A DNA stretch of 64,000 nt from Escherichia coli. Its GTDB lineage: Bacteria; Pseudomonadota; Gammaproteobacteria; Enterobacterales; Enterobacteriaceae. Position numbers and translations under genes: made by a program. Where the stretch lies: the NCBI RefSeq assembly GCF_003018255.1, contig NZ_CP027440.1, one strand, 5' to 3'. The notes below the pieces were generated by a model that ran no database searches, was not told the DNA's origin, and saw nothing but the letters and a program-made list of their open reading frames with translations. This document shows positions 1-37,080 of this stretch, one piece after another. The first letter of the stretch is position 1. Each line of letters starts with the position of its first letter.

Positions 1-1111
<1,111 letters not shown>

Positions 1112-1189
1112 TTTTTTCATCGCTCAAGGCGGGCCGTGTAACGTATAATGCGGCCTTGTTTAATCATCATCTACCACAGAGGAACATGT

Positions 1190-1459
1190 ATGGGTGGTAT
1201 CAGTATTTGGCAGTTATTGATTATTGCCGTCATCGTTGTACTGCTTTTTGGCACCAAAAAGCTCGGCTCCATCGGTTCCGATCTTGGTGCGTCGATCAAA
1301 GGCTTTAAAAAAGCAATGAGCGATGATGAACCAAAGCAGGATAAAACCAGTCAGGATGCTGATTTTACTGCGAAAACTATCGCCGATAAGCAGGCGGATA
1401 CGAATCAGGAACAGGCTAAAACAGAAGACGCGAAGCGCCACGATAAAGAGCAGGTGTAA
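1190..1459 (+). CDS. tatA: Twin-arginine translocase subunit TatA (89 aa)
   Basis: ORF-track frame 1148..1459; start placed at internal ATG 1190 giving [28 protein letters not shown]-terminal TM helix plus amphipathic helix typical of TatA. Confidence 0.9.
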
Positions 1460-1462
1460 TCC

Positions 1463-1978
1463 GTGTTTGATATCGGTTTTAGCGAACTGCTATTGGTATT
1501 CATCATCGGCCTCGTCGTTCTGGGGCCGCAACGACTGCCTGTGGCGGTAAAAACGGTCGCGGGCTGGATTCGCGCGTTGCGTTCACTGGCGACAACGGTG
1601 CAGAACGAACTGACCCAGGAGTTAAAACTCCAGGAGTTTCAGGACAGTCTGAAAAAGGTTGAAAAGGCGAGCCTCACTAACCTGACGCCCGAACTGAAAG
1701 CGTCGATGGATGAACTACGCCAGGCCGCGGAGTCGATGAAGCGTTCCTACGTTGCAAACGATCCTGAAAAGGCGAGCGATGAAGCGCACACCATCCACAA
1801 CCCGGTGGTGAAAGACAATGAAGCTGCGCATGAAGGCGTAACGCCTGCTGCTGCACAAACGCAAGCCAGTTCGCCGGAACAGAAGCCAGAAACCACGCCA
1901 GAGCCGGTGGTAAAACCTGCTGCGGACGCTGAACCGAAAACCGCTGCACCTTCCCCTTCGTCGAGTGATAAACCGTAA
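1463..1978 (+). CDS. tatB: Twin-arginine translocase subunit TatB (171 aa)
   Basis: ORF 1463..1978, GTG start, [26 protein letters not shown]; directly follows tatA. Confidence 0.9.
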
Positions 1979-1980
1979 AC

Positions 1981-2757
1981 ATGTCTGTAGAAGATACTCA
2001 ACCGCTTATCACGCATCTGATTGAGCTGCGTAAGCGTCTGCTGAACTGCATTATCGCGGTGATCGTGATATTCCTGTGTCTGGTCTATTTCGCCAATGAC
2101 ATCTATCACCTGGTATCCGCGCCATTGATCAAGCAGTTGCCGCAAGGTTCAACGATGATCGCCACCGACGTGGCCTCGCCGTTCTTTACGCCGATCAAGC
2201 TGACCTTTATGGTGTCGCTGATTCTGTCAGCGCCGGTGATTCTCTATCAGGTGTGGGCGTTTATCGCCCCAGCGCTGTATAAGCATGAACGTCGCCTGGT
2301 GGTGCCGCTGCTGGTTTCCAGCTCTCTGTTGTTTTATATCGGCATGGCGTTCGCCTACTTTGTGGTCTTTCCGCTGGCATTTGGCTTCCTTGCCAATACC
2401 GCGCCGGAAGGGGTACAGGTATCCACCGACATCGCCAGCTATTTAAGCTTCGTTATGGCGCTGTTTATGGCGTTTGGTGTCTCCTTTGAAGTGCCGGTGG
2501 CAATAGTGCTGCTGTGCTGGATGGGAATTACCTCGCCAGAAGACTTACGCAAAAAACGTCCGTATGTGCTGGTTGGCGCATTTGTTGTCGGGATGCTGCT
2601 GACGCCGCCGGATGTCTTCTCGCAAACGCTGCTGGCGATCCCGATGTATTGCCTGTTTGAAATCGGTGTCTTCTTCTCACGCTTTTACGTTGGTAAAGGG
2701 CGAAATCGGGAAGAGGAAAACGACGCTGAAGCAGAAAGCGAAAAAACTGAAGAATAA
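1981..2757 (+). CDS. tatC: Twin-arginine translocase subunit TatC (258 aa, polytopic membrane protein)
   Basis: ORF 1981..2757; multiple TM segments; tatABC operon order. Confidence 0.93.
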
Positions 2758-2798
2758 ATTCAACCGCCCGTCAGGGCGGTTGTCATATGGAGTACAGG

Positions 2799-4111
<1,313 letters not shown>

Positions 4112-4232
4112 TTACGCTAAGTTAATTATATTCCCCGGTTTGCGTTATACCGTCAGAGTTCACGCTAATTTAACAAATTTACAGCATCGCAAAGATGAAC
4201 GCCGTATAATGGGCGCAGATTAAGAGGCTACA

Positions 4233-5726
4233 ATGGACGCCATGAAATATAACGATTTACGCGACTTCTTGACGCTGCTTGAACAGCAGGGTGAGCTAAA
4301 ACGTATCACGCTCCCGGTGGATCCGCACCTGGAAATCACTGAAATTGCTGACCGCACTTTGCGTGCCGGTGGGCCTGCGCTGTTGTTCGAAAACCCTAAA
4401 GGCTACTCAATGCCGGTGCTGTGCAACCTGTTCGGTACGCCAAAGCGCGTGGCGATGGGCATGGGGCAGGAAGATGTTTCGGCGCTGCGTGAAGTTGGTA
4501 AATTATTGGCGTTTCTGAAAGAGCCGGAGCCGCCAAAAGGTTTCCGCGACCTGTTTGATAAACTGCCGCAGTTTAAGCAAGTATTGAACATGCCGACAAA
4601 GCGGCTGCGTGGTGCGCCTTGCCAACAAAAAATCGTCTCTGGCGATGACGTCGATCTCAATCGTATTCCCATTATGACCTGCTGGCCGGAAGATGCCGCG
4701 CCGCTGATTACCTGGGGGCTCACCGTAACGCGCGGCCCGCATAAAGAGCGGCAGAATCTGGGCATTTATCGCCAGCAGCTAATTGGTAAAAACAAACTGA
4801 TTATGCGCTGGCTGTCGCATCGCGGCGGCGCGTTGGATTATCAGGAGTGGTGTGCGGCGCATCCGGGCGAACGTTTCCCGGTTTCTGTGGCGCTGGGTGC
4901 CGATCCCGCCACGATTCTCGGTGCAGTCACCCCCGTTCCGGATACGCTTTCAGAGTATGCGTTTGCCGGATTGCTGCGCGGCACCAAGACCGAAGTGGTG
5001 AAGTGTATCTCCAATGACCTTGAAGTGCCCGCCAGTGCGGAGATTGTGCTGGAAGGGTATATCGAACAAGGCGAAACTGCGCCGGAAGGGCCGTATGGCG
5101 ACCACACCGGTTACTATAACGAAGTCGATAGTTTTCCGGTATTTACCGTGACGCATATTACCCAGCGTGAAGATGCGATTTATCATTCCACCTATACCGG
5201 GCGTCCGCCAGATGAACCTGCGGTACTGGGTGTAGCACTGAACGAAGTGTTCGTGCCGATTCTGCAAAAACAGTTCCCGGAAATTGTCGATTTTTATCTG
5301 CCGCCGGAAGGCTGTTCTTATCGTCTGGCGGTAGTGACGATCAAAAAACAGTATGCCGGACACGCGAAGCGCGTCATGATGGGCGTCTGGTCGTTCTTAC
5401 GCCAGTTTATGTACACTAAATTTGTGATCGTTTGCGATGATGACGTCAACGCCCGCGACTGGAACGATGTGATTTGGGCGATTACCACCCGTATGGACCC
5501 GGCGCGGGATACCGTTCTGGTAGAAAATACGCCTATTGATTATCTGGATTTTGCCTCCCCTGTCTCCGGGCTGGGTTCAAAAATGGGGCTGGATGCCACG
5601 AATAAATGGCCGGGGGAAACCCAGCGTGAATGGGGACGTCCCATCAAAAAAGATCCAGATGTTGTCGCGCATATTGACGCCATTTGGGATGAACTGGCTA
5701 TTTTTAACAACGGTAAAAGCGCCTGA
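4233..5726 (+). CDS. ubiD: 3-octaprenyl-4-hydroxybenzoate decarboxylase UbiD (497 aa)
   Basis: ORF 4233..5726; UbiD-family length and motifs; synteny rfaH-ubiD-fre. Confidence 0.93.
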
Positions 5727-5771
5727 TGCGCGTTTGTTTTGCCCTATTTATCGATCCGACAGAGAAAGCGC

Positions 5772-6473
5772 ATGACAACCTTAAGCTGTAAAGTGACCTC
5801 GGTAGAAGCTATCACGGATACCGTATATCGTGTCCGCATCGTGCCAGACGCGGCCTTTTCTTTTCGTGCTGGTCAGTATTTGATGGTAGTGATGGATGAG
5901 CGCGACAAACGTCCGTTCTCAATGGCTTCGACGCCAGATGAAAAAGGGTTTATCGAGCTGCATATTGGCGCTTCTGAAATCAACCTTTACGCGAAAGCAG
6001 TCATGGACCGCATCCTCAAAGATCATCAAATCGTGGTCGATATTCCCCACGGAGAAGCGTGGCTGCGCGATGATGAAGAGCGTCCGATGATTTTGATTGC
6101 GGGCGGCACCGGGTTCTCTTATGCCCGCTCGATTTTGCTGACAGCGTTGGCGCGTAACCCAAACCGTGATATCACCATTTACTGGGGCGGGCGTGAAGAG
6201 CAGCATCTGTATGATCTCTGCGAGCTTGAGGCGCTTTCGTTGAAGCATCCTGGTCTACAAGTGGTGCCGGTGGTTGAACAACCGGAAGCGGGCTGGCGTG
6301 GGCGTACTGGCACCGTGTTAACGGCGGTATTGCAGGATCATGGTACGCTGGCAGAGCATGATATCTATATTGCCGGACGTTTTGAGATGGCGAAAATTGC
6401 CCGTGACCTGTTTTGCAGCGAGCGTAATGCGCGGGAAGATCGCCTGTTTGGCGATGCGTTTGCATTTATCTGA
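5772..6473 (+). CDS. fre: NAD(P)H-flavin reductase Fre (233 aa)
   Basis: ORF-track frame 5739..6473; start placed at [14 protein letters not shown]; ferredoxin-NADP reductase-like fold motifs (RPFSMAS, GGTGFS). Confidence 0.9.
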
Positions 6474-6480
6474 GATATAA

Positions 6481-6512
6481 AAAACCCGCCCCTGACAGGC
6501 GGGAAGAACGGC
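6481..6512. terminator. GC-rich hairpin (cccgcccctgacaggcggg) flanked by an A-run on the plus strand, which is a T-run on the minus strand; likely terminator for the convergent fadBA transcript and/or fre
   Basis: Inverted repeat read directly; U-tract is on the minus-strand side. Confidence 0.4.
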
Positions 6513-6540
6513 AACTAAAACTTTATACAGTGGCATTTAG

Positions 6541-6660
6541 ATCTATGTCGCATCCGGCATTCGGCACACGCTGCCTGATGCGACGCTGGCGCGTCTTATC
6601 AGGCCTACAATTGGTGCAGGATCGGTAGACCGGATAAGGCGTTCACGCCGCATCTGGCAA
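6541..6660. repeat. REP/BIME-type repetitive extragenic palindromes
   Basis: Motifs gatgcgacgctggcgcgtcttatcaggcctac and ccggataaggcgttcacgccgcatc in inverted orientation between fre and fadA. Confidence 0.6.
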
Positions 6661-6664
6661 GTGG

Positions 6665-7837
<1,173 letters not shown>

Positions 7838-10027
7838 TTAAGCCGTTTTCAGGTCGCCAACCGGACGGGCTGGCTCAACCGGGGGATAGTACGGTTCGTT
7901 ATGACGCGCTTTATTACGCAGACCTTCCGGCACTTCATACAGCGGGCCGAGGTGCTGATATTGTTGTGCCATATCGAGGTATTTTGCGCTACCGAGGGTG
8001 TCCAGCCAGCGGAACGCACCACCGTGGAACGGAGGGAAGCCCAGGCCGTAGACCAGCGCCATATCCGCTTCTGCTGGAGTGGCGATAATGCCTTCTTCCA
8101 GACAGCGCACCACTTCGTTGACCATCGGGATCATCATGCGGGCGATAATCTCTTCTTCGCGGAAATCGCGCTTCGGCTGGCTCACTTCTGCCAGCAGGTC
8201 GTCAACAGCGGCGTCTTCTTCTTTCTTCGGCTTACCTTTGCTGTCTTCTTTATAACGCCAGAAACCGAGGCCGTTCTTCTGACCAAAGCGGTTGGCATCA
8301 AACAGCGCGTCGATGGCATCGCGATAATCTTTCTGCATCCGCTGCGGGAAGCCTGCTGCCATGACAGCCTGGGCATGATGCGCGGTGTCAATGCCCACAA
8401 CGTCCAGCAGATATGCCGGACCCATAGGCCAGCCAAACTGTTTTTCCATCACTTTGTCGATCTTGCGGAAATCCGCGCCGTCGCGCAGCAGCTGGCTGAA
8501 ACCGGCGAAATACGGGAACAGCACGCGGTTAACAAAGAAGCCGGGGCAGTCGTTAACCACAATCGGCGTCTTGCCCATCTTGCTCGCCCAGGCGACAACT
8601 TTCGCGATGGTTTCGTCGGAGCTTTTCTCGCCGCGAATAATTTCCACCAACGGCATTCGGTGGACCGGGTTAAAGAAGTGCATCCCGCAGAAGTTTTCCG
8701 GACGCTCCAGCGCGTTGGCCAGTTCGCTGATAGGAATGGTTGAAGTGTTAGACGCCAGCACGGTATCCGGGCGTACTTTTTGTTCGGTTTCTGCCAGTAC
8801 GGCTTTTTTCACTTTCGGGTTTTCAACAACCGCTTCTACCACAATATCCACGCGGTCAAACCCGGCGTAGTCGAGCGTTGGGTGGATTGTAGAGATCACG
8901 CCAGCCAGTTTCAGACCATCGATCTTGCCGCGCTCAAGCTGCTTGTTCAGCAGTTTCGCTGCTTCGGTCATGCCGAGGGTTAACGACTTGTCGTTAATAT
9001 CTTTCATGACAACCGGCACGCCTTTCCACGCAGACTGGTAAGCGATGCCGCCGCCCATAATGCCTGCGCCCAGCACAGCGGCCTGTTTCGGCGTTTCAAC
9101 GTCTTTGGTGAGTTTCTTCGCTTTGCCTTTTACATATTGATCGTTAAGGAATATGCCGACCAGTGCGCGAGCTTCGTTGGTATGCGCCAGCGGGACAAAA
9201 CTTTTGTTTTCCAGGTTTAGGGCTTCTTCACGACCAAAACGGGCCGCAGCTTCAATGGTTTTTACTGCGGTGATGGGGGCCGGATAATGTTTCCCCGCCG
9301 TTTGTGCGACCATCCCTTTAGCGATGGTGAAGCTCATGGTGGCTTCAATCTTGCTCAGTTTTAGCGGTTCCAGCTTCGGCTGACGTTTCGCTTTCCAGTC
9401 GAGGTCGCCGTTAATGGCCTGGCGTAAAATCGCCATCGCCCCTTCAATCAGTTTTTCTGCTTTGACTACGCCATCCACCAGACCGATTTTCAGCGCTTGA
9501 TCCGCGCCGACATCTTTACCGGCGGCAATGATTTCCAGCGCACTGTCAGCGCCCAGCATACGTGGCATACGTACAGAACCGCCAAAGCCCGGCATGATGC
9601 CCAGTTTGGTTTCCGGCAGACCGATGCGCAGATCCGGCGTCGCCAGACGATAATCGGTCGCCAGCACGCATTCGCAGCCACCGCCCAGCGCATAGCCGTT
9701 GACGGCAGCAATGGTCGGCACCGGCAGATCTTCCAGGCGATTAAACACGCTATTGGCAAAATGTAGCCACTGGCTTAACTGTTCTTCAGGAACGAGGAAC
9801 AGGGACAAAAATTCGGTGATATCAGCACCGACGATAAAGGCTGCTTTGTTCGAACGCAGCAGCAGCCCTTTTAGATCTGATTGCTGTTCCAGCACGCCGA
9901 TGGCCTCGCCGAGGCTGGCGACGGTGGCAGTGTCGAGTTTATTAACTGAACCTGGGGCATCAAATACCAGTTCGGCAATGCCATCTTCCAGCCAGTCAAG
10001 GTACAGGGTGTCGCCTTTGTAAAGCAT
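7838..10027 (-). CDS. fadB: Fatty-acid oxidation complex alpha subunit FadB (enoyl-CoA hydratase / 3-hydroxyacyl-CoA dehydrogenase, 729 aa)
   Basis: ORF-track frame 7838..10153 minus; start placed at internal Met ([16 protein letters not shown]) at 10027; crotonase and NAD-binding domains. Confidence 0.93.
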
Positions 10028-10052
10028 GTCAGTCTCCTGAATCCGCAAGGTG

Positions 10053-10069
10053 ATCTGGTCGTACCAGAT
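10053..10069. promoter_or_regulatory. Candidate FadR operator in the fadBA promoter (palindrome atctggtcgtaccagat)
   Basis: Perfect 17-bp palindrome about 25 bp upstream of the fadB start; resembles the FadR consensus AACTGGTC-N-GACCAGTT. Confidence 0.55.
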
Positions 10070-10216
10070 GCATCGAAGTGTGTATTTTGTGTTAAAAATA
10101 TGCAAATAAAAGATTAAAGAAATGCCGATCTGATCACGCTCGGCAGAAATCACGCTCTGGATGAACGATGTGCTAAGATGCGGAGACTTAAGGTCAAAAA
10201 AACAGAAGGGTAAAAA

Positions 10217-11548
10217 ATGGAATCACTGGCCTCGCTCTATAAAAATCATATAGCTACCTTACAGGAACGGACTCGCGATGCGCTGGCGCGCTTCAAGCTG
10301 GATGCGTTACTTATTCACTCCGGCGAACTGTTCAACGTTTTTCTCGACGATCATCCCTATCCGTTTAAAGTGAATCCGCAATTCAAAGCGTGGGTGCCGG
10401 TAACTCAGGTGCCAAACTGCTGGCTGCTGGTGGATGGCGTGAACAAGCCGAAACTGTGGTTTTATCTGCCGGTTGATTACTGGCACAACGTCGAACCGCT
10501 GCCGACCTCCTTCTGGACTGAAGATGTAGAAGTGATCGCGCTGCCGAAAGCCGATGGCATTGGTAGCCTGCTGCCTGCTGCGCGCGGGAATATCGGTTAT
10601 ATCGGTCCGGTGCCGGAGCGTGCGCTGCAACTGGGTATTGAGGCCAGCAATATCAACCCGAAAGGGGTGATCGACTACCTGCATTACTACCGCTCCTTCA
10701 AAACCGAGTACGAACTGGCCTGTATGCGTGAAGCGCAGAAAATGGCGGTCAACGGTCATCGCGCGGCAGAAGAAGCGTTCCGTTCTGGCATGAGCGAGTT
10801 CGATATCAATATTGCCTATCTGACCGCGACCGGTCATCGTGATACCGACGTACCTTACAGCAACATTGTGGCGCTTAACGAACACGCTGCGGTGTTGCAT
10901 TACACCAAACTGGACCACCAGGCACCGGAAGAGATGCGCAGCTTCCTGCTGGATGCCGGGGCCGAATATAACGGCTATGCGGCTGACCTGACCCGTACCT
11001 GGTCGGCAAAAAGCGACAACGACTACGCACAGCTGGTGAAAGACGTAAATGATGAGCAACTGGCGCTGATCGCCACCATGAAAGCAGGCGTCAGCTATGT
11101 GGATTACCATATCCAGTTCCATCAGCGCATCGCCAAACTGCTGCGTAAACATCAAATCATCACCGATATGAGTGAAGAAGCGATGGTCGAAAACGATCTC
11201 ACCGGACCGTTTATGCCGCACGGTATCGGCCATCCGCTGGGCCTGCAGGTGCATGACGTAGCCGGTTTCATGCAGGATGATAGCGGTACGCACCTCGCGG
11301 CACCGGCAAAATATCCGTACCTGCGCTGCACCCGTATTCTCCAGCCGGGCATGGTGTTAACCATCGAGCCGGGTATCTACTTCATCGAATCGCTACTGGC
11401 ACCGTGGCGTGAAGGGCAGTTCAGTAAACACTTTAACTGGCAGAAAATTGAAGTACTGAAACCGTTCGGCGGCATTCGTATCGAAGACAACGTGGTGATC
11501 CACGAAAACAACGTGGAGAACATGACCCGGGATCTGAAACTGGCGTGA
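10217..11548 (+). CDS. pepQ: Xaa-Pro dipeptidase PepQ (prolidase, 443 aa)
   Basis: ORF 10217..11548; M24 metallopeptidase motifs; divergent from fadBA. Confidence 0.93.
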
Positions 11549-12162
11549 TGGAAAGCTGGTTAATTCCTGCGGCACCGGTCACGGTCGTTGAAGAGATTAA
11601 AAAGAGCCGCTTCATTACGCTGTTGGCGCATACCGATGGCGTTGAGGCGGCGAAAGCGTTTGTTGAATCGGTGCGAGCAGAACACCCCGATGCCCGCCAC
11701 CATTGCGTGGCGTGGGTGGCGGGTGCGCCTGACGATTCACAACAGCTGGGTTTCTCTGACGACGGGGAGCCGACGGGAACGGCAGGTAAACCGATGCTCG
11801 CCCAACTAATGGGCAGCGGCGTCGGGGAAATTACCGCTGTGGTGGTGCGCTACTACGGCGGCATATTGCTTGGCACCGGTGGGTTAGTGAAAGCGTATGG
11901 CGGCGGCGTGAATCAGGCGCTGCGCCAGCTAACGACCCAACGCAAGACACCATTAACCGAATATACTTTGCAATGTGAATATAGTCAGTTAACCGGCATT
12001 GAAGCGTTGCTGGGGCAGTGTGACGGCAAAATTATCAACAGTGATTATCAGGCATTCGTTCTGCTGCGGGTGGCGCTTCCGGCGGCGAAAGTGGCTGAAT
12101 TTTCCGCAAAGCTGGCGGATTTTAGCCGTGGTTCATTGCAATTGTTAGCGATTGAAGAATAA
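11545..12162 (+). CDS. yigZ: IMPACT-family protein YigZ
   Basis: ORF 11545..12162, start overlaps the pepQ stop (ATGATGG); conserved position between pepQ and trkH. Confidence 0.8.
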
Positions 12163-12200
12163 TCCCCACTTCGTTTTGCAGAACTAAGGAAGCGGCAGAG

Positions 12201-13652
12201 ATGCATTTTCGCGCCATTACCCGAATCGTTGGACTACTGGTCATCTTATTTTCAGGGACCATGATTATCCCTGGGCTGGTAGCACTCATCTACCGGGATG
12301 GAGCGGGCCGCGCTTTTACCCAGACCTTTTTTGTCGCCCTCGCCATTGGCTCTATGCTGTGGTGGCCGAACCGCAAAGAGAAGGGCGAACTGAAATCCCG
12401 TGAGGGGTTTCTGATAGTGGTGCTGTTCTGGACCGTGCTGGGTAGCGTCGGTGCGCTCCCTTTTATCTTCTCGGAAAGCCCGAACCTCACGATTACCGAT
12501 GCGTTTTTTGAATCTTTCTCTGGCCTGACCACCACGGGGGCCACTACGCTAGTGGGGCTGGATTCGCTCCCTCACGCCATCCTCTTTTATCGCCAGATGC
12601 TGCAATGGTTTGGCGGGATGGGGATCATCGTGTTAGCGGTTGCGATACTGCCTATCCTCGGCGTGGGTGGGATGCAGCTCTATCGCGCAGAAATGCCCGG
12701 CCCGCTGAAAGATAACAAAATGCGCCCGCGAATTGCGGAAACGGCGAAAACCCTGTGGTTGATTTATGTCTTGCTGACCGTCGCCTGTGCGCTGGCGTTG
12801 TGGTTTGCCGGAATGGATGCCTTTGATGCCATCGGCCATAGCTTTGCGACTATCGCTATTGGCGGCTTCTCGACACATGATGCCAGTATCGGTTATTTCG
12901 ACAGCCCGACTATTAACACTATCATTGCTATCTTCCTGCTGATCTCCGGCTGTAACTACGGTCTGCACTTTTCACTGTTAAGTGGGCGTAGTCTGAAGGT
13001 TTATTGGCGCGATCCGGAATTTCGCATGTTTATCGGCGTACAGTTTACGCTGGTGGTTATTTGTACACTCGTACTGTGGTTTCATAATGTCTACAGTTCG
13101 GCGCTGATGACAATTAACCAGGCGTTTTTCCAGGTGGTATCGATGGCGACAACCGCCGGGTTTACGACTGACAGCATTGCCCGCTGGCCGCTCTTTTTGC
13201 CGGTACTGCTCTTATGTTCAGCTTTTATCGGCGGTTGCGCCGGGTCAACGGGCGGTGGCCTGAAAGTGATCCGCATCCTGCTGCTGTTTAAGCAGGGGAA
13301 CCGTGAGCTGAAACGACTGGTGCATCCGAACGCCGTCTATAGCATTAAGCTGGGGAATCGCGCACTGCCGGAACGTATCCTCGAAGCCGTGTGGGGATTT
13401 TTCTCCGCCTATGCATTGGTGTTTATTGTCAGTATGCTGGCGATTATCGCCACGGGCGTGGATGACTTTTCTGCCTTTGCCTCGGTTGTTGCGACATTGA
13501 ATAACCTGGGGCCAGGGCTTGGTGTGGTTGCTGATAACTTTACCAGTATGAACCCGGTGGCTAAATGGATCCTGATTGCCAACATGCTGTTTGGTCGTCT
13601 CGAGGTCTTTACATTGCTGGTGCTCTTTACCCCGACTTTCTGGCGTGAATGA
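12201..13652 (+). CDS. trkH: Potassium uptake protein TrkH (483 aa, polytopic)
   Basis: ORF 12201..13652; many TM helices; synteny. Confidence 0.93.
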   Translation: MHFRAITRIVGLLVILFSGTMIIPGLVALIYRDGAGRAFTQTFFVALAIGSMLWWPNRKEKGELKSREGFLIVVLFWTVLGSVGALPFIFSESPNLTITDAFFESFSGLTTTGATTLVGLDSLPHAILFYRQMLQWFGGMGIIVLAVAILPILGVGGMQLYRAEMPGPLKDNKMRPRIAETAKTLWLIYVLLTVACALALWFAGMDAFDAIGHSFATIAIGGFSTHDASIGYFDSPTINTIIAIFLLISGCNYGLHFSLLSGRSLKVYWRDPEFRMFIGVQFTLVVICTLVLWFHNVYSSALMTINQAFFQVVSMATTAGFTTDSIARWPLFLPVLLLCSAFIGGCAGSTGGGLKVIRILLLFKQGNRELKRLVHPNAVYSIKLGNRALPERILEAVWGFFSAYALVFIVSMLAIIATGVDDFSAFASVVATLNNLGPGLGVVADNFTSMNPVAKWILIANMLFGRLEVFTLLVLFTPTFWRE

Positions 13653-13663
13653 TGGAGTAATAC

Positions 13664-14209
13664 GTGAAAACATTAATTCTTTTCTCAACAAGGGACGGAC
13701 AAACGCGCGAGATTGCCTCCTACCTGGCTTCGGAACTGAAAGAACTGGGGATCCAGGCGGATGTCGCCAATGTGCACCGCATTGAAGAACCACAGTGGGA
13801 AAACTACGACCGTGTGGTCATTGGTGCTTCTATTCGCTATGGTCACTACCACTCTGCGTTCCAGGAGTTTGTCAAAAAGCATGCGACGCGACTGAATTCG
13901 ATGCCGAGCGCCTTTTACTCCGTAAACCTGGTGGCGCGTAAACCGGAGAAGCGTACTCCACAGACCAACAGCTACGCGCGGAAGTTTCTGATGAGTTCAC
14001 AATGGCGTCCCGATCGCTGTGCCGTCATTGCCGGGGCGCTGCGTTACCCACGTTATCGCTGGTACGACCGTTTTATGATCAAGCTGATTATGAAGATGTC
14101 AGGCGGTGAAACGGATACGCGCAAAGAAGTTGTCTATACCGATTGGGAGCAGGTGGCGAATTTCGCCCGAGAAATCGCCCATTTAACCGACAAACCGACG
14201 CTGAAATAA
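13664..14209 (+). CDS. hemG: Protoporphyrinogen IX dehydrogenase (menaquinone-dependent) HemG, flavodoxin-like (181 aa)
   Basis: ORF 13664..14209, GTG start; [22 protein letters not shown] flavodoxin motif; immediately upstream of an rRNA operon as for rrnA. Confidence 0.9.
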
Positions 14210-14585: not shown

Positions 14586-16127
<1,542 letters not shown>

Positions 16128-16195: not shown

Positions 16196-16272
<77 letters not shown>

Positions 16273-16314
16273 AATTTGCACGGCAAATTTGAAGAGGTTT
16301 TAACTACATGTTAT

Positions 16315-16390
16315 GGGGCTATAGCTCAGCTGGGAGAGCGCCTGCTTTGCACGCAGGAGGTCTGCGGTTCGATCCCGCATAGCTCCACCA
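16315..16390 (+). tRNA. alaT: tRNA-Ala (anticodon TGC) in the 16S-23S spacer
   Basis: ggggctatagctcagctgggagagcgcctgctttgcacgcaggaggtctgcggttcgatcccgcatagctccacca. Confidence 0.97.
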
Positions 16391-16564: not shown

Positions 16565-19470
<2,906 letters not shown>

Positions 19471-19567: not shown

Positions 19568-19687
19568 TGCCTGGCGGCCTTAGCGCGGTGGTCCCACCTG
19601 ACCCCATGCCGAACTCAGAAGTGAAACGCCGTAGCGCCGATGGTAGTGTGGGGTCTCCCCATGCGAGAGTAGGGAACTGCCAGGCAT
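19568..19687 (+). rRNA. rrfA: 5S ribosomal RNA
   Basis: tgcctggcggccttagcgcggtggtcccacctgacccc ... gggaactgccaggcat; 120 nt. Confidence 0.97.
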
Positions 19688-28634: not shown

Positions 28635-28782
28635 GATTCGCCTGAACATGCCCTTTTTTCGTAAGTAAGCAACATAAGCTGTCACGTTTTGTGATGGCTA
28701 TTAGAAATTCCTATGCAACAACTGAAAAAAAATTACAAAAAATGCTTTCTGAACTGAACAAAAAAGAGTAAAGTTAGTCGCG

Positions 28783-28891
28783 TAGGGTACAGAGGTAAGA
28801 TGTTCTATCTTTCAGACCTTTTACTTCACGTAATCGGATTTGGCTGAATATTTTAGCCGCCCCAGTCAGTAATGACTGGGGCGTTTTTTAT
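28783..28891 (+). ncRNA. spf: Spot 42 small regulatory RNA
   Basis: gtagggtacagaggtaagatgttctatctttcagacc ... cccagtcagtaatgactggggcgtttttta; intrinsic terminator; location just 3' of polA. Confidence 0.9.
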
Positions 28892-29860: not shown

Positions 29861-30104
29861 ATAGAGCGAGGACGCTAACAGGAACAATGACTCAGGATGA
29901 GGGTCAGGAGCGCCAGGAGGCGAAGACAGAGGATTGTCAGGAAGATAAACGTCCGGAGACGTAATTAAACGGAAATGGAATCAACACGGATTGTTCCGGC
30001 TAATGGAAAAACAGGGTGTGTTGGCGGCCTGCAAGGATTGTAAGACCCGTTAAGGGTTATGAGTCAGGAAAAAAGGCGACAGAGTAATCTGTCGCCTTTT
30101 TTCT
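29861..30104 (+). ncRNA. csrC: CsrC small RNA (CsrA-sequestering)
   Basis: About 245 nt with many GGA motifs in predicted loops (caggaa, caggatga, caggag, caggagg, caggaag, acggattg, caaggattg, tcaggaa), ending in terminator gcgacagagtaatctgtcgccttttttc; position between engB and yihI. Confidence 0.85.
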
Positions 30105-30171
30105 TTGCTTGCTTTCTGTTAGATTCCGCCGCAAATCTATACTGAATAAAACGGCTAAAAGACGAACCATT

Positions 30172-35125: not shown

Positions 35126-35211
35126 AAAGCAGTCTCCTGAACAGGTTGCACCATTTTAGTGCATTATAGCTTTTTACGGATAAAAAGCGCGAAGCATCAG
35201 AGAATTGACGG

Positions 35212-36790: not shown

Positions 36791-36930
36791 AAGCGAAAAC
36801 TGTGCCAACTTTTAAATTGCCCCTAAAAGGCGTTATCATGCTTAACATCGTGCAAAAGGGCTGCACCATGATGTGAATGTTGCACCAATATAGTGCTTCA
36901 ATGGAAACATTAAGCACCATATTGGTGCAA
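36791..36930 (-). promoter_or_regulatory. glnA control region: sigma-54 promoter glnAp2 (TGGCAC-N5-TCGCT) and upstream NtrC enhancer sites
   Basis: Minus-strand ttggcacagttttcgct at 36791-36808; NtrC-like palindromes tgcaccaatatagtgct (36881-36897) and gcaccatattggtgca (36914-36929). Confidence 0.75.
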
Positions 36931-37080
36931 TGACCTTTGGATAACCCTTTTTATGCTCCGTGAAAGCGATCACAAAGGGACTCTGCAATACTTGTTTGCG
37001 GAGGATGTTTGTGATCCTGTTTTGTAGTGCGATTAATCCGTGTACAATAACGCGCTATTTCTAATGCCTGAGGCAAAGTT

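Follow-up and report, generated by a model that had tools for sequence, protein, structure and literature searches.

The stretch of DNA analyzed here (the window) comprises 64,000 nucleotides of an Escherichia coli genome (contig NZ_CP027440.1, assembly GCF_003018255.1), and its gene order is of the E. coli type, running ubiD-fre-fadA-fadB-pepQ-trkH through to an rrn operon, Spot 42, and CsrC. The genes named fadB and pepQ in the RefSeq annotation diverge, on the minus and plus strands, respectively, from a 189-bp spacer bounded by a minus-strand ORF with its ATG at 10027 and a plus-strand ORF starting at 10217; the G+C content of the spacer is 41%, versus 51% for the window, and the gene layout around it is the same as in K-12 MG1655. 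At 10053-10069, inside this spacer and 25 nt upstream of the fadB ATG, lies the single exact occurrence in the window of ATCTGGTCGTACCAGAT, which reads ATCTGGTACGACCAGAT on the fadB strand. The exact string thus falls within the interval 10040-10075, where the first-pass annotation had placed a FadR-type operator. The same annotation spoke of a perfect 17-bp palindrome, a description that is accurate for the 7-bp arms (ATCTGGT and ACCAGAT), which are perfectly complementary, but not for the 3-bp center that they flank, as the central CGT is not self-complementary and positions 8-10 differ from the reverse complement. The operon and its operator are laid out as follows:

6665-7828, minus strand: fadA coding sequence, 387 aa, second gene of the operon
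7838-10027, minus strand: fadB coding sequence, 729 aa, first gene of the operon
10053-10069, minus strand: site read as the FadR operator OB of fadBA, ATCTGGTACGACCAGAT; exact string, identical to the K-12 site, to the EMSA probe sequence, and to the crystal oligonucleotide; transcript +1 to +17 by the inferred start
10053-10059, minus strand: promoter-distal half-site arm ACCAGAT (reverse complement ATCTGGT), from the string and PMC3592433
10063-10069, minus strand: promoter-proximal half-site arm ATCTGGT, with the TGG to which one FadR monomer makes contact (TGG motif per PMC3592433)

Comparison of the fadB-strand site with the K-12 fadB operator, one of the checks proposed at the outset, yielded identity at 17 of 17 positions, and the match extends to 19 of 19 positions of the oligonucleotide used for crystallography: the DNA of the FadR-DNA crystal complex is the 19-mer CATCTGGTACGACCAGATC (PMC3592433), which is found exactly at 10052-10070. 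In that complex, the TGG of each half-site receives most of the base-specific contacts of FadR (PMC3592433); a FadR-DNA structure is also available as PDB 1H9T (cited in PMC9329746). Moreover, ATCTGGTACGACCAGAT lies inside the EMSA probe made with the primer pair fadBA-F/R (ACTTCGACTCATCTGGTACGACCAGATCACCTTGCGG), which is shifted by wild-type FadR and not by the W60G mutant, and deletion of fadR raises expression of a fadBA-lacZ fusion more than 3-fold (PMC4259882). FadR itself is a GntR-family dimer whose repression is lifted by acyl-CoA of at least 14 carbons, and its site at fadBA overlaps the transcription start (PMC9329746); the K-12 fadB operator OB for FadR is that of DiRusso et al. (1992), cited in PMC10703908. 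Taken with its position and its conservation (below), this base-for-base identity to the operator of both the EMSA and the crystal structure leads us to read 10053-10069 as the FadR operator of the fadBA operon, with a probability of about 0.95; the identification follows from these three lines of evidence and not from a motif score. The feature is a known, textbook, and ordinary one, and its recovery amounts to re-finding one of the best-characterized bacterial operators, which also serves as the sensing element of acyl-CoA biosensors. That FadR functions here as it does in K-12 would follow, with very little doubt, from the identical sequence.

The setting of the site likewise corresponds to that of the K-12 operator, which controls the same gene from the same 25-nt distance to the fadB ATG and with the same leader. 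A 271-bp alignment against K-12 MG1655 contains three substitutions, all in the spacer (10071-10072 and 10107), leaving the 17-mer, the leader, and the first codons unchanged. The first two, directly upstream of the operator, place TG rather than CT on the fadB strand at -3/-2 (CA on the plus strand) and also distinguish the window from the published K-12 EMSA probe, while the third places T rather than C at -38. Relative to the FadR boxes of fadL, fadD, fadE, fabA, and fabB, the fadB site has the same 17-bp length, the same CTGGT left half, and the same GntR-type GT-N-AC core, but it alone has fully symmetric 7-bp arms; its bases at positions 2 and 16 are T/A, and that at position 8 is A. The arrangement differs as well: fadB has a single site at +1 to +17, whereas fadL and fadD have two sites each, and the FadR sites of fabA and fabB, unlike that of fadB, lie upstream of the -35 element and are activating.

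Within the species, the operator is almost invariant. A megablast search with 9500-10700 returned matches in 5425 of 5426 complete E. coli genomes, and a 35-mer that takes in the operator and leader (10036-10070) is present exactly in 5414 of the 5426. By comparison, a 61-mer extended into the upstream flank is exact in its window version in 2736 of 5422 E. coli genomes, the other sampled genomes having two mismatches to it, as K-12 does; the 2 bp just upstream of the operator are accordingly dimorphic in E. coli, at roughly 50:50, and an invariant operator abuts a common polymorphism. The gene for the repressor, fadR, is located outside the window; of the 5426 complete E. coli genomes, 5422 contain the K-12 gene.

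Beyond E. coli, a scan for the exact 17-mer, with one genome per species, gave at least 120 loci. Because these loci were picked by exact match, conservation of the operator among them holds by construction, and it is the constancy of position and the divergence of the flanks that are informative. In at least 83 Enterobacterales loci from about 35 genera, the 17-mer lies 23-28 nt upstream of the fadB N-terminus, with pepQ usually divergent; the genera include Escherichia, Salmonella, Citrobacter, Klebsiella, Raoultella, Enterobacter, Kosakonia, Kluyvera, Buttiauxella, and Cedecea, as well as Erwinia, Pantoea, Mixta, Tatumella, Dickeya, Brenneria, Serratia, Providencia, Moellerella, and others. 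In two further loci, from Providencia (L039) and Cedecea (L095), pepQ adjoins the 17-mer and the sequence ends before fadB is reached. Comparison of 81 distinct sequences upstream of fadB with the window gave 72% identity over the 40 nt adjoining the operator on its upstream side and 54% further out, such that the operator keeps a fixed distance from fadB across Enterobacterales while its surroundings diverge. Among the matches listed (at least 120), approximately 35 loci fall in unrelated taxa, a number that agrees with chance in the 298 Gb searched (298e9 x 2 / 4^17 = about 35). Six of these, in Negativicutes (Phascolarctobacterium, Acidaminococcaceae, and other Negativicutes genomes; L010, L011, L042, L056, L060, and L073), were considered as operators and rejected as a coding coincidence, since the 17-mer there lies inside the conserved coding sequence ...SQLNTIWYDQID... 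(NTIWYDQID).

A variation internal to the site is also seen among these loci. In at least 15 of them (L012, L020, L022, L033, L040, L048, L050, L051, L062, L069, L075, L089, L102, L106, and L116), the arms are identical and the central triplet is inverted relative to fadB, giving CGT rather than ACG, that is, ATCTGGTCGTACCAGAT on the fadB strand; the genera concerned are Dickeya, Brenneria, Moellerella, Providencia, Serratia, Symbiopectobacterium, and Samsonia (Pectobacteriaceae, Morganellaceae, and Yersiniaceae), and the flipped-triplet sites are also 23-28 nt from the fadB ATG. A triplet that flips while the arms stay unchanged fits a symmetric dimer that reads the arms.

Measures based on the motif are of more variable force. 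The first-pass annotation held that the site closely resembles the FadR consensus, aaCTGGTCnGACC(T/A)Gtt (PMC9329746), and the resemblance stands, in that CTGGT-N3-ACCAG is present exactly and 14 of 17 positions agree (the departures being at positions 2, 8, and 16); the wording is nonetheless an understatement, for the site is itself one of the curated FadR sites. Three matches with at most three mismatches to this consensus occur in the window, against 0.46 expected, and they consist of the operator on both strands together with 35140-35156. The latter reads AAATGGTGCAACCTGTT on the minus strand; no further place in the window comes this close to the FadR consensus.

The proposed scan with a FadR matrix, on the other hand, failed to single out the fadB site. 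Leave-one-out PWMs were built from six to seven other K-12 sites (two of fadL, two of fadD, fabA, fabB, and fadE) in four variants, plain or palindromized, and with these matrices the site scored 9-10.5 bits, ranked 6th to 14th among approximately 64,000 positions, and fell below the maxima of shuffled windows. The low score is attributable to positions 2 and 16 (T/A) and 8 (A), at which the fadB site differs from the others, and the failure of the scan to a training set that is tiny and asymmetric; exact identity to a validated site therefore weighs more, and the FadR matrix is evidently too weak to recover its own best-known site when that site is left out of training.

These statistics bear on the idea that the palindrome is a chance inverted repeat devoid of function. 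Perfect 7+3+7 inverted repeats of any sequence are indeed common here, with 12 in the window versus 4.25 +/- 1.9 in Markov resamples, and the PWM score of the site does not exceed the null. The specific sequence, however, is another matter: the 14-base specification of the site is expected 2.4e-4 times per 64 kb, has its sole exact match in the window at this position, and coincides with a validated operator, which stays invariant in E. coli beside a dimorphic dinucleotide and keeps its distance from fadB across genera. A functionless repeat is accordingly given almost no credence, and chance is excluded as the origin of the fadB operator.

A second alternative is that the site is mainly a target of another GntR regulator of the FadR subfamily, either PdhR (box AATTGGTnnnACCAATT) or LldR. 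The PdhR and LldR boxes share with the fadB operator the inverted repeat TGGT-N3-ACCA at the same spacing, the site agrees with the PdhR box at 10 of 14 specified positions, and genomic SELEX has placed PdhR and LldR on the fadE, fadIJ, and fadL promoters at or beside FadR boxes (PMC7660256; PMC10272880). The outer arm differs, however, being AATTGGT in the PdhR and LldR boxes and ATCTGGT in the fadB operator, and the same two papers make no mention of a peak in the fadB/pepQ spacer, with pepQ absent and fadB appearing only in text on the pathway. Direct binding of FadR and a co-crystal, by contrast, exist for the operator sequence (PMC4259882; PMC3592433). PdhR and LldR were thus set aside as alternative ligands, since their binding at this spacer is not reported in either genomic SELEX paper (PMC7660256; PMC10272880), and a principal role for either protein is judged exceedingly improbable.

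The position of the operator relative to the promoter can be derived from a published coordinate. The 19-mer TTGCATATTTTTAACACAA, a putative FIS site, is given as "-36 to 18" of the fadBA promoter (PMC3460868), which we take as -36 to -18, and it is found at 10105-10087 on the minus strand; the start of transcription, anchored indirectly through these FIS-site coordinates, would then be the A at 10069, and the operator would occupy +1 to +17. Conservation, together with the published coordinate, served to place the -10 and -35 hexamers, the two candidates being the most conserved blocks upstream of the operator:

10069, minus strand: inferred fadB transcription start, +1 A (coordinate of PMC3460868; statement of overlap in PMC9329746)
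10077-10082, minus strand: candidate -10 hexamer CACACT (-13 to -8), from geometry and near invariance in 81 Enterobacterales upstream regions
10100-10105, minus strand: candidate -35 hexamer TTGCAT (-36 to -31) with a 17-bp spacer to the -10, from geometry and the invariance of TTGCA
10028-10069, minus strand: fadB 5' leader, 42 nt by the inferred start, with the Shine-Dalgarno sequence AGGAG at 10034-10038

The location expected of a fad-promoter operator, overlapping +1, is borne out by this anchor, that is, by the inferred start. As for the earlier statement that the palindrome overlaps the likely fadB promoter, it is correct with respect to the start site, in that the operator covers +1 to +17, and incorrect with respect to the -10 and -35 hexamers, which lie outside it. 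A scan of 9950-10300 for the sigma-70 consensus found no promoter; the hexamers are too far from consensus for such a scan, which would suit a weak, activator-dependent promoter. Inside TTGCATATTTTTAACACAA, the sequence TTAACA at approximately 10090-10095 (reverse complement TGTTAA, similar to an ArcA half-site) is nearly invariant across genera.

A further conserved block upstream of the promoter elements looks like a class I CRP site, an argument drawn from conservation and position:

10123-10138, minus strand: candidate class I CRP site cGTGATCAGATCGGCA, centered at -61.5

The block follows the pattern TGTGA-N6-nnGCA. In the 81 fadB upstream regions, no variation is seen in GTGA, in the C after it, or in the right-half CA, while the central four bases vary freely, and the first base is T (giving TGTGA) in 50 of the 81; the E. 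coli sequence agrees with the core at six of 10 positions, a match that by itself lacks significance. Expression of fadBA requires CRP and is subject to synergistic anaerobic repression by ArcA (PMC9329746; PMC3460868), and both papers describe fadBA as having no identified CRP site and suggest that the effect of CRP is indirect. No usable CRP ChIP-exo data for fadB emerged from a literature search. Whether CRP activates fadBA directly is a question that the CRP-like box at -61.5 could decide. On the plus strand, the left half of this block falls within a 9-bp direct repeat, ATCACGCTC, whose copies are at 10133-10141 and 10149-10157.

On the basis of the literature on K-12, from which binding, release by effector, and repression are carried over to the strain of the window, regulation of fadBA would proceed as follows. 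A FadR dimer would bind the operator with the winged helix-turn-helix of each monomer on one arm, reading the TGG of CTGGT and ACCAG, and, with the site extending from +1 to +17 of the transcript, the bound repressor would block RNA polymerase at the promoter. Long-chain acyl-CoA (C14 or longer) would bind the C-terminal domain of FadR and shift the DNA-binding domains, such that FadR leaves the DNA, and its release would allow transcription of fadB-fadA together with FadZ, a 3'UTR-derived sRNA made from the fadBA transcript (PMC10703908). ArcA, through anaerobic repression, and cAMP-CRP, through activation that may be direct or indirect, would act at the same promoter.

Given that the operator would form the very beginning of the transcript, it may also be asked whether the palindrome matters mainly as RNA, that is, as a stem-loop at the 5' terminus that protects the fadBA-FadZ mRNA against 5'-end-dependent decay, with the DNA site being secondary. 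5'-Terminal hairpins stabilize E. coli mRNAs, for example that of ompA. As RNA, the 17-mer folds into a hairpin of 7 bp with a 3-nt loop (-6.8 kcal/mol; z = -4.4 versus shuffles), which starts at or beside the inferred +1 and is kept in both the MFE and centroid folds of the 70-nt 5' end, and the loci in which the central triplet is flipped and the arms are kept (at least 15, in distant Enterobacterales) preserve the stem. Transcribed DNA palindromes all fold likewise, however, and the arms are equally needed for contacts with FadR, so conservation cannot separate an RNA role from a DNA role; the 70-nt 5' end taken in full shows no unusual degree of structure (z = -1.15), and no effect on mRNA stability is reported in the literature consulted. 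FadR binding and fadR-dependent repression, by contrast, were shown experimentally for the identical sequence (PMC4259882), and a mainly RNA-level role is deemed very unlikely. Somewhat less remote, though still improbable, is a second role for the FadR operator, whereby its 5'-terminal hairpin would also set the stability of the fadBA-FadZ mRNA and the sequence would be under dual selection as DNA and RNA. If true, such dual selection could account both for arms whose symmetry exceeds that of every other FadR site and for the restriction of flips between lineages to the loop triplet.

Several observations concern the remainder of the window. The 3'UTR of fadA spans approximately 188 nt (about 6477-6664, minus strand) and ends in a strong intrinsic terminator, with a stem at 6503-6485 followed by a T-run; its last 40 nt or so match the position of the Hfq-bound sRNA FadZ/STnc790 of Salmonella and E. 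coli (PMC10703908), and REP-like palindromic units are present at about 6545-6650. An Rfam scan of the whole window at gathering thresholds gave nothing in the fadB-pepQ spacer or the fadA 3'UTR and returned the following elsewhere:

14586-16127: 16S rRNA of the rrn operon
16196-16387: two tRNAs of the rrn operon
16565-19470: 23S rRNA of the rrn operon
19570-19685: 5S rRNA of the rrn operon
28772-28890: Spot 42
29861-30114: CsrC
36892-36999: ES222
61554-61612, minus strand: SECIS_3

Lastly, when positions 1-14000 of the window were compared with the 5426 complete E. coli genomes, the best identity was 99.4%, in two JNE strains, followed by 98.9% for the next genomes listed; a top identity of 99.4%, reached in two genomes, indicates that the source belongs to a less-sampled Escherichia lineage.
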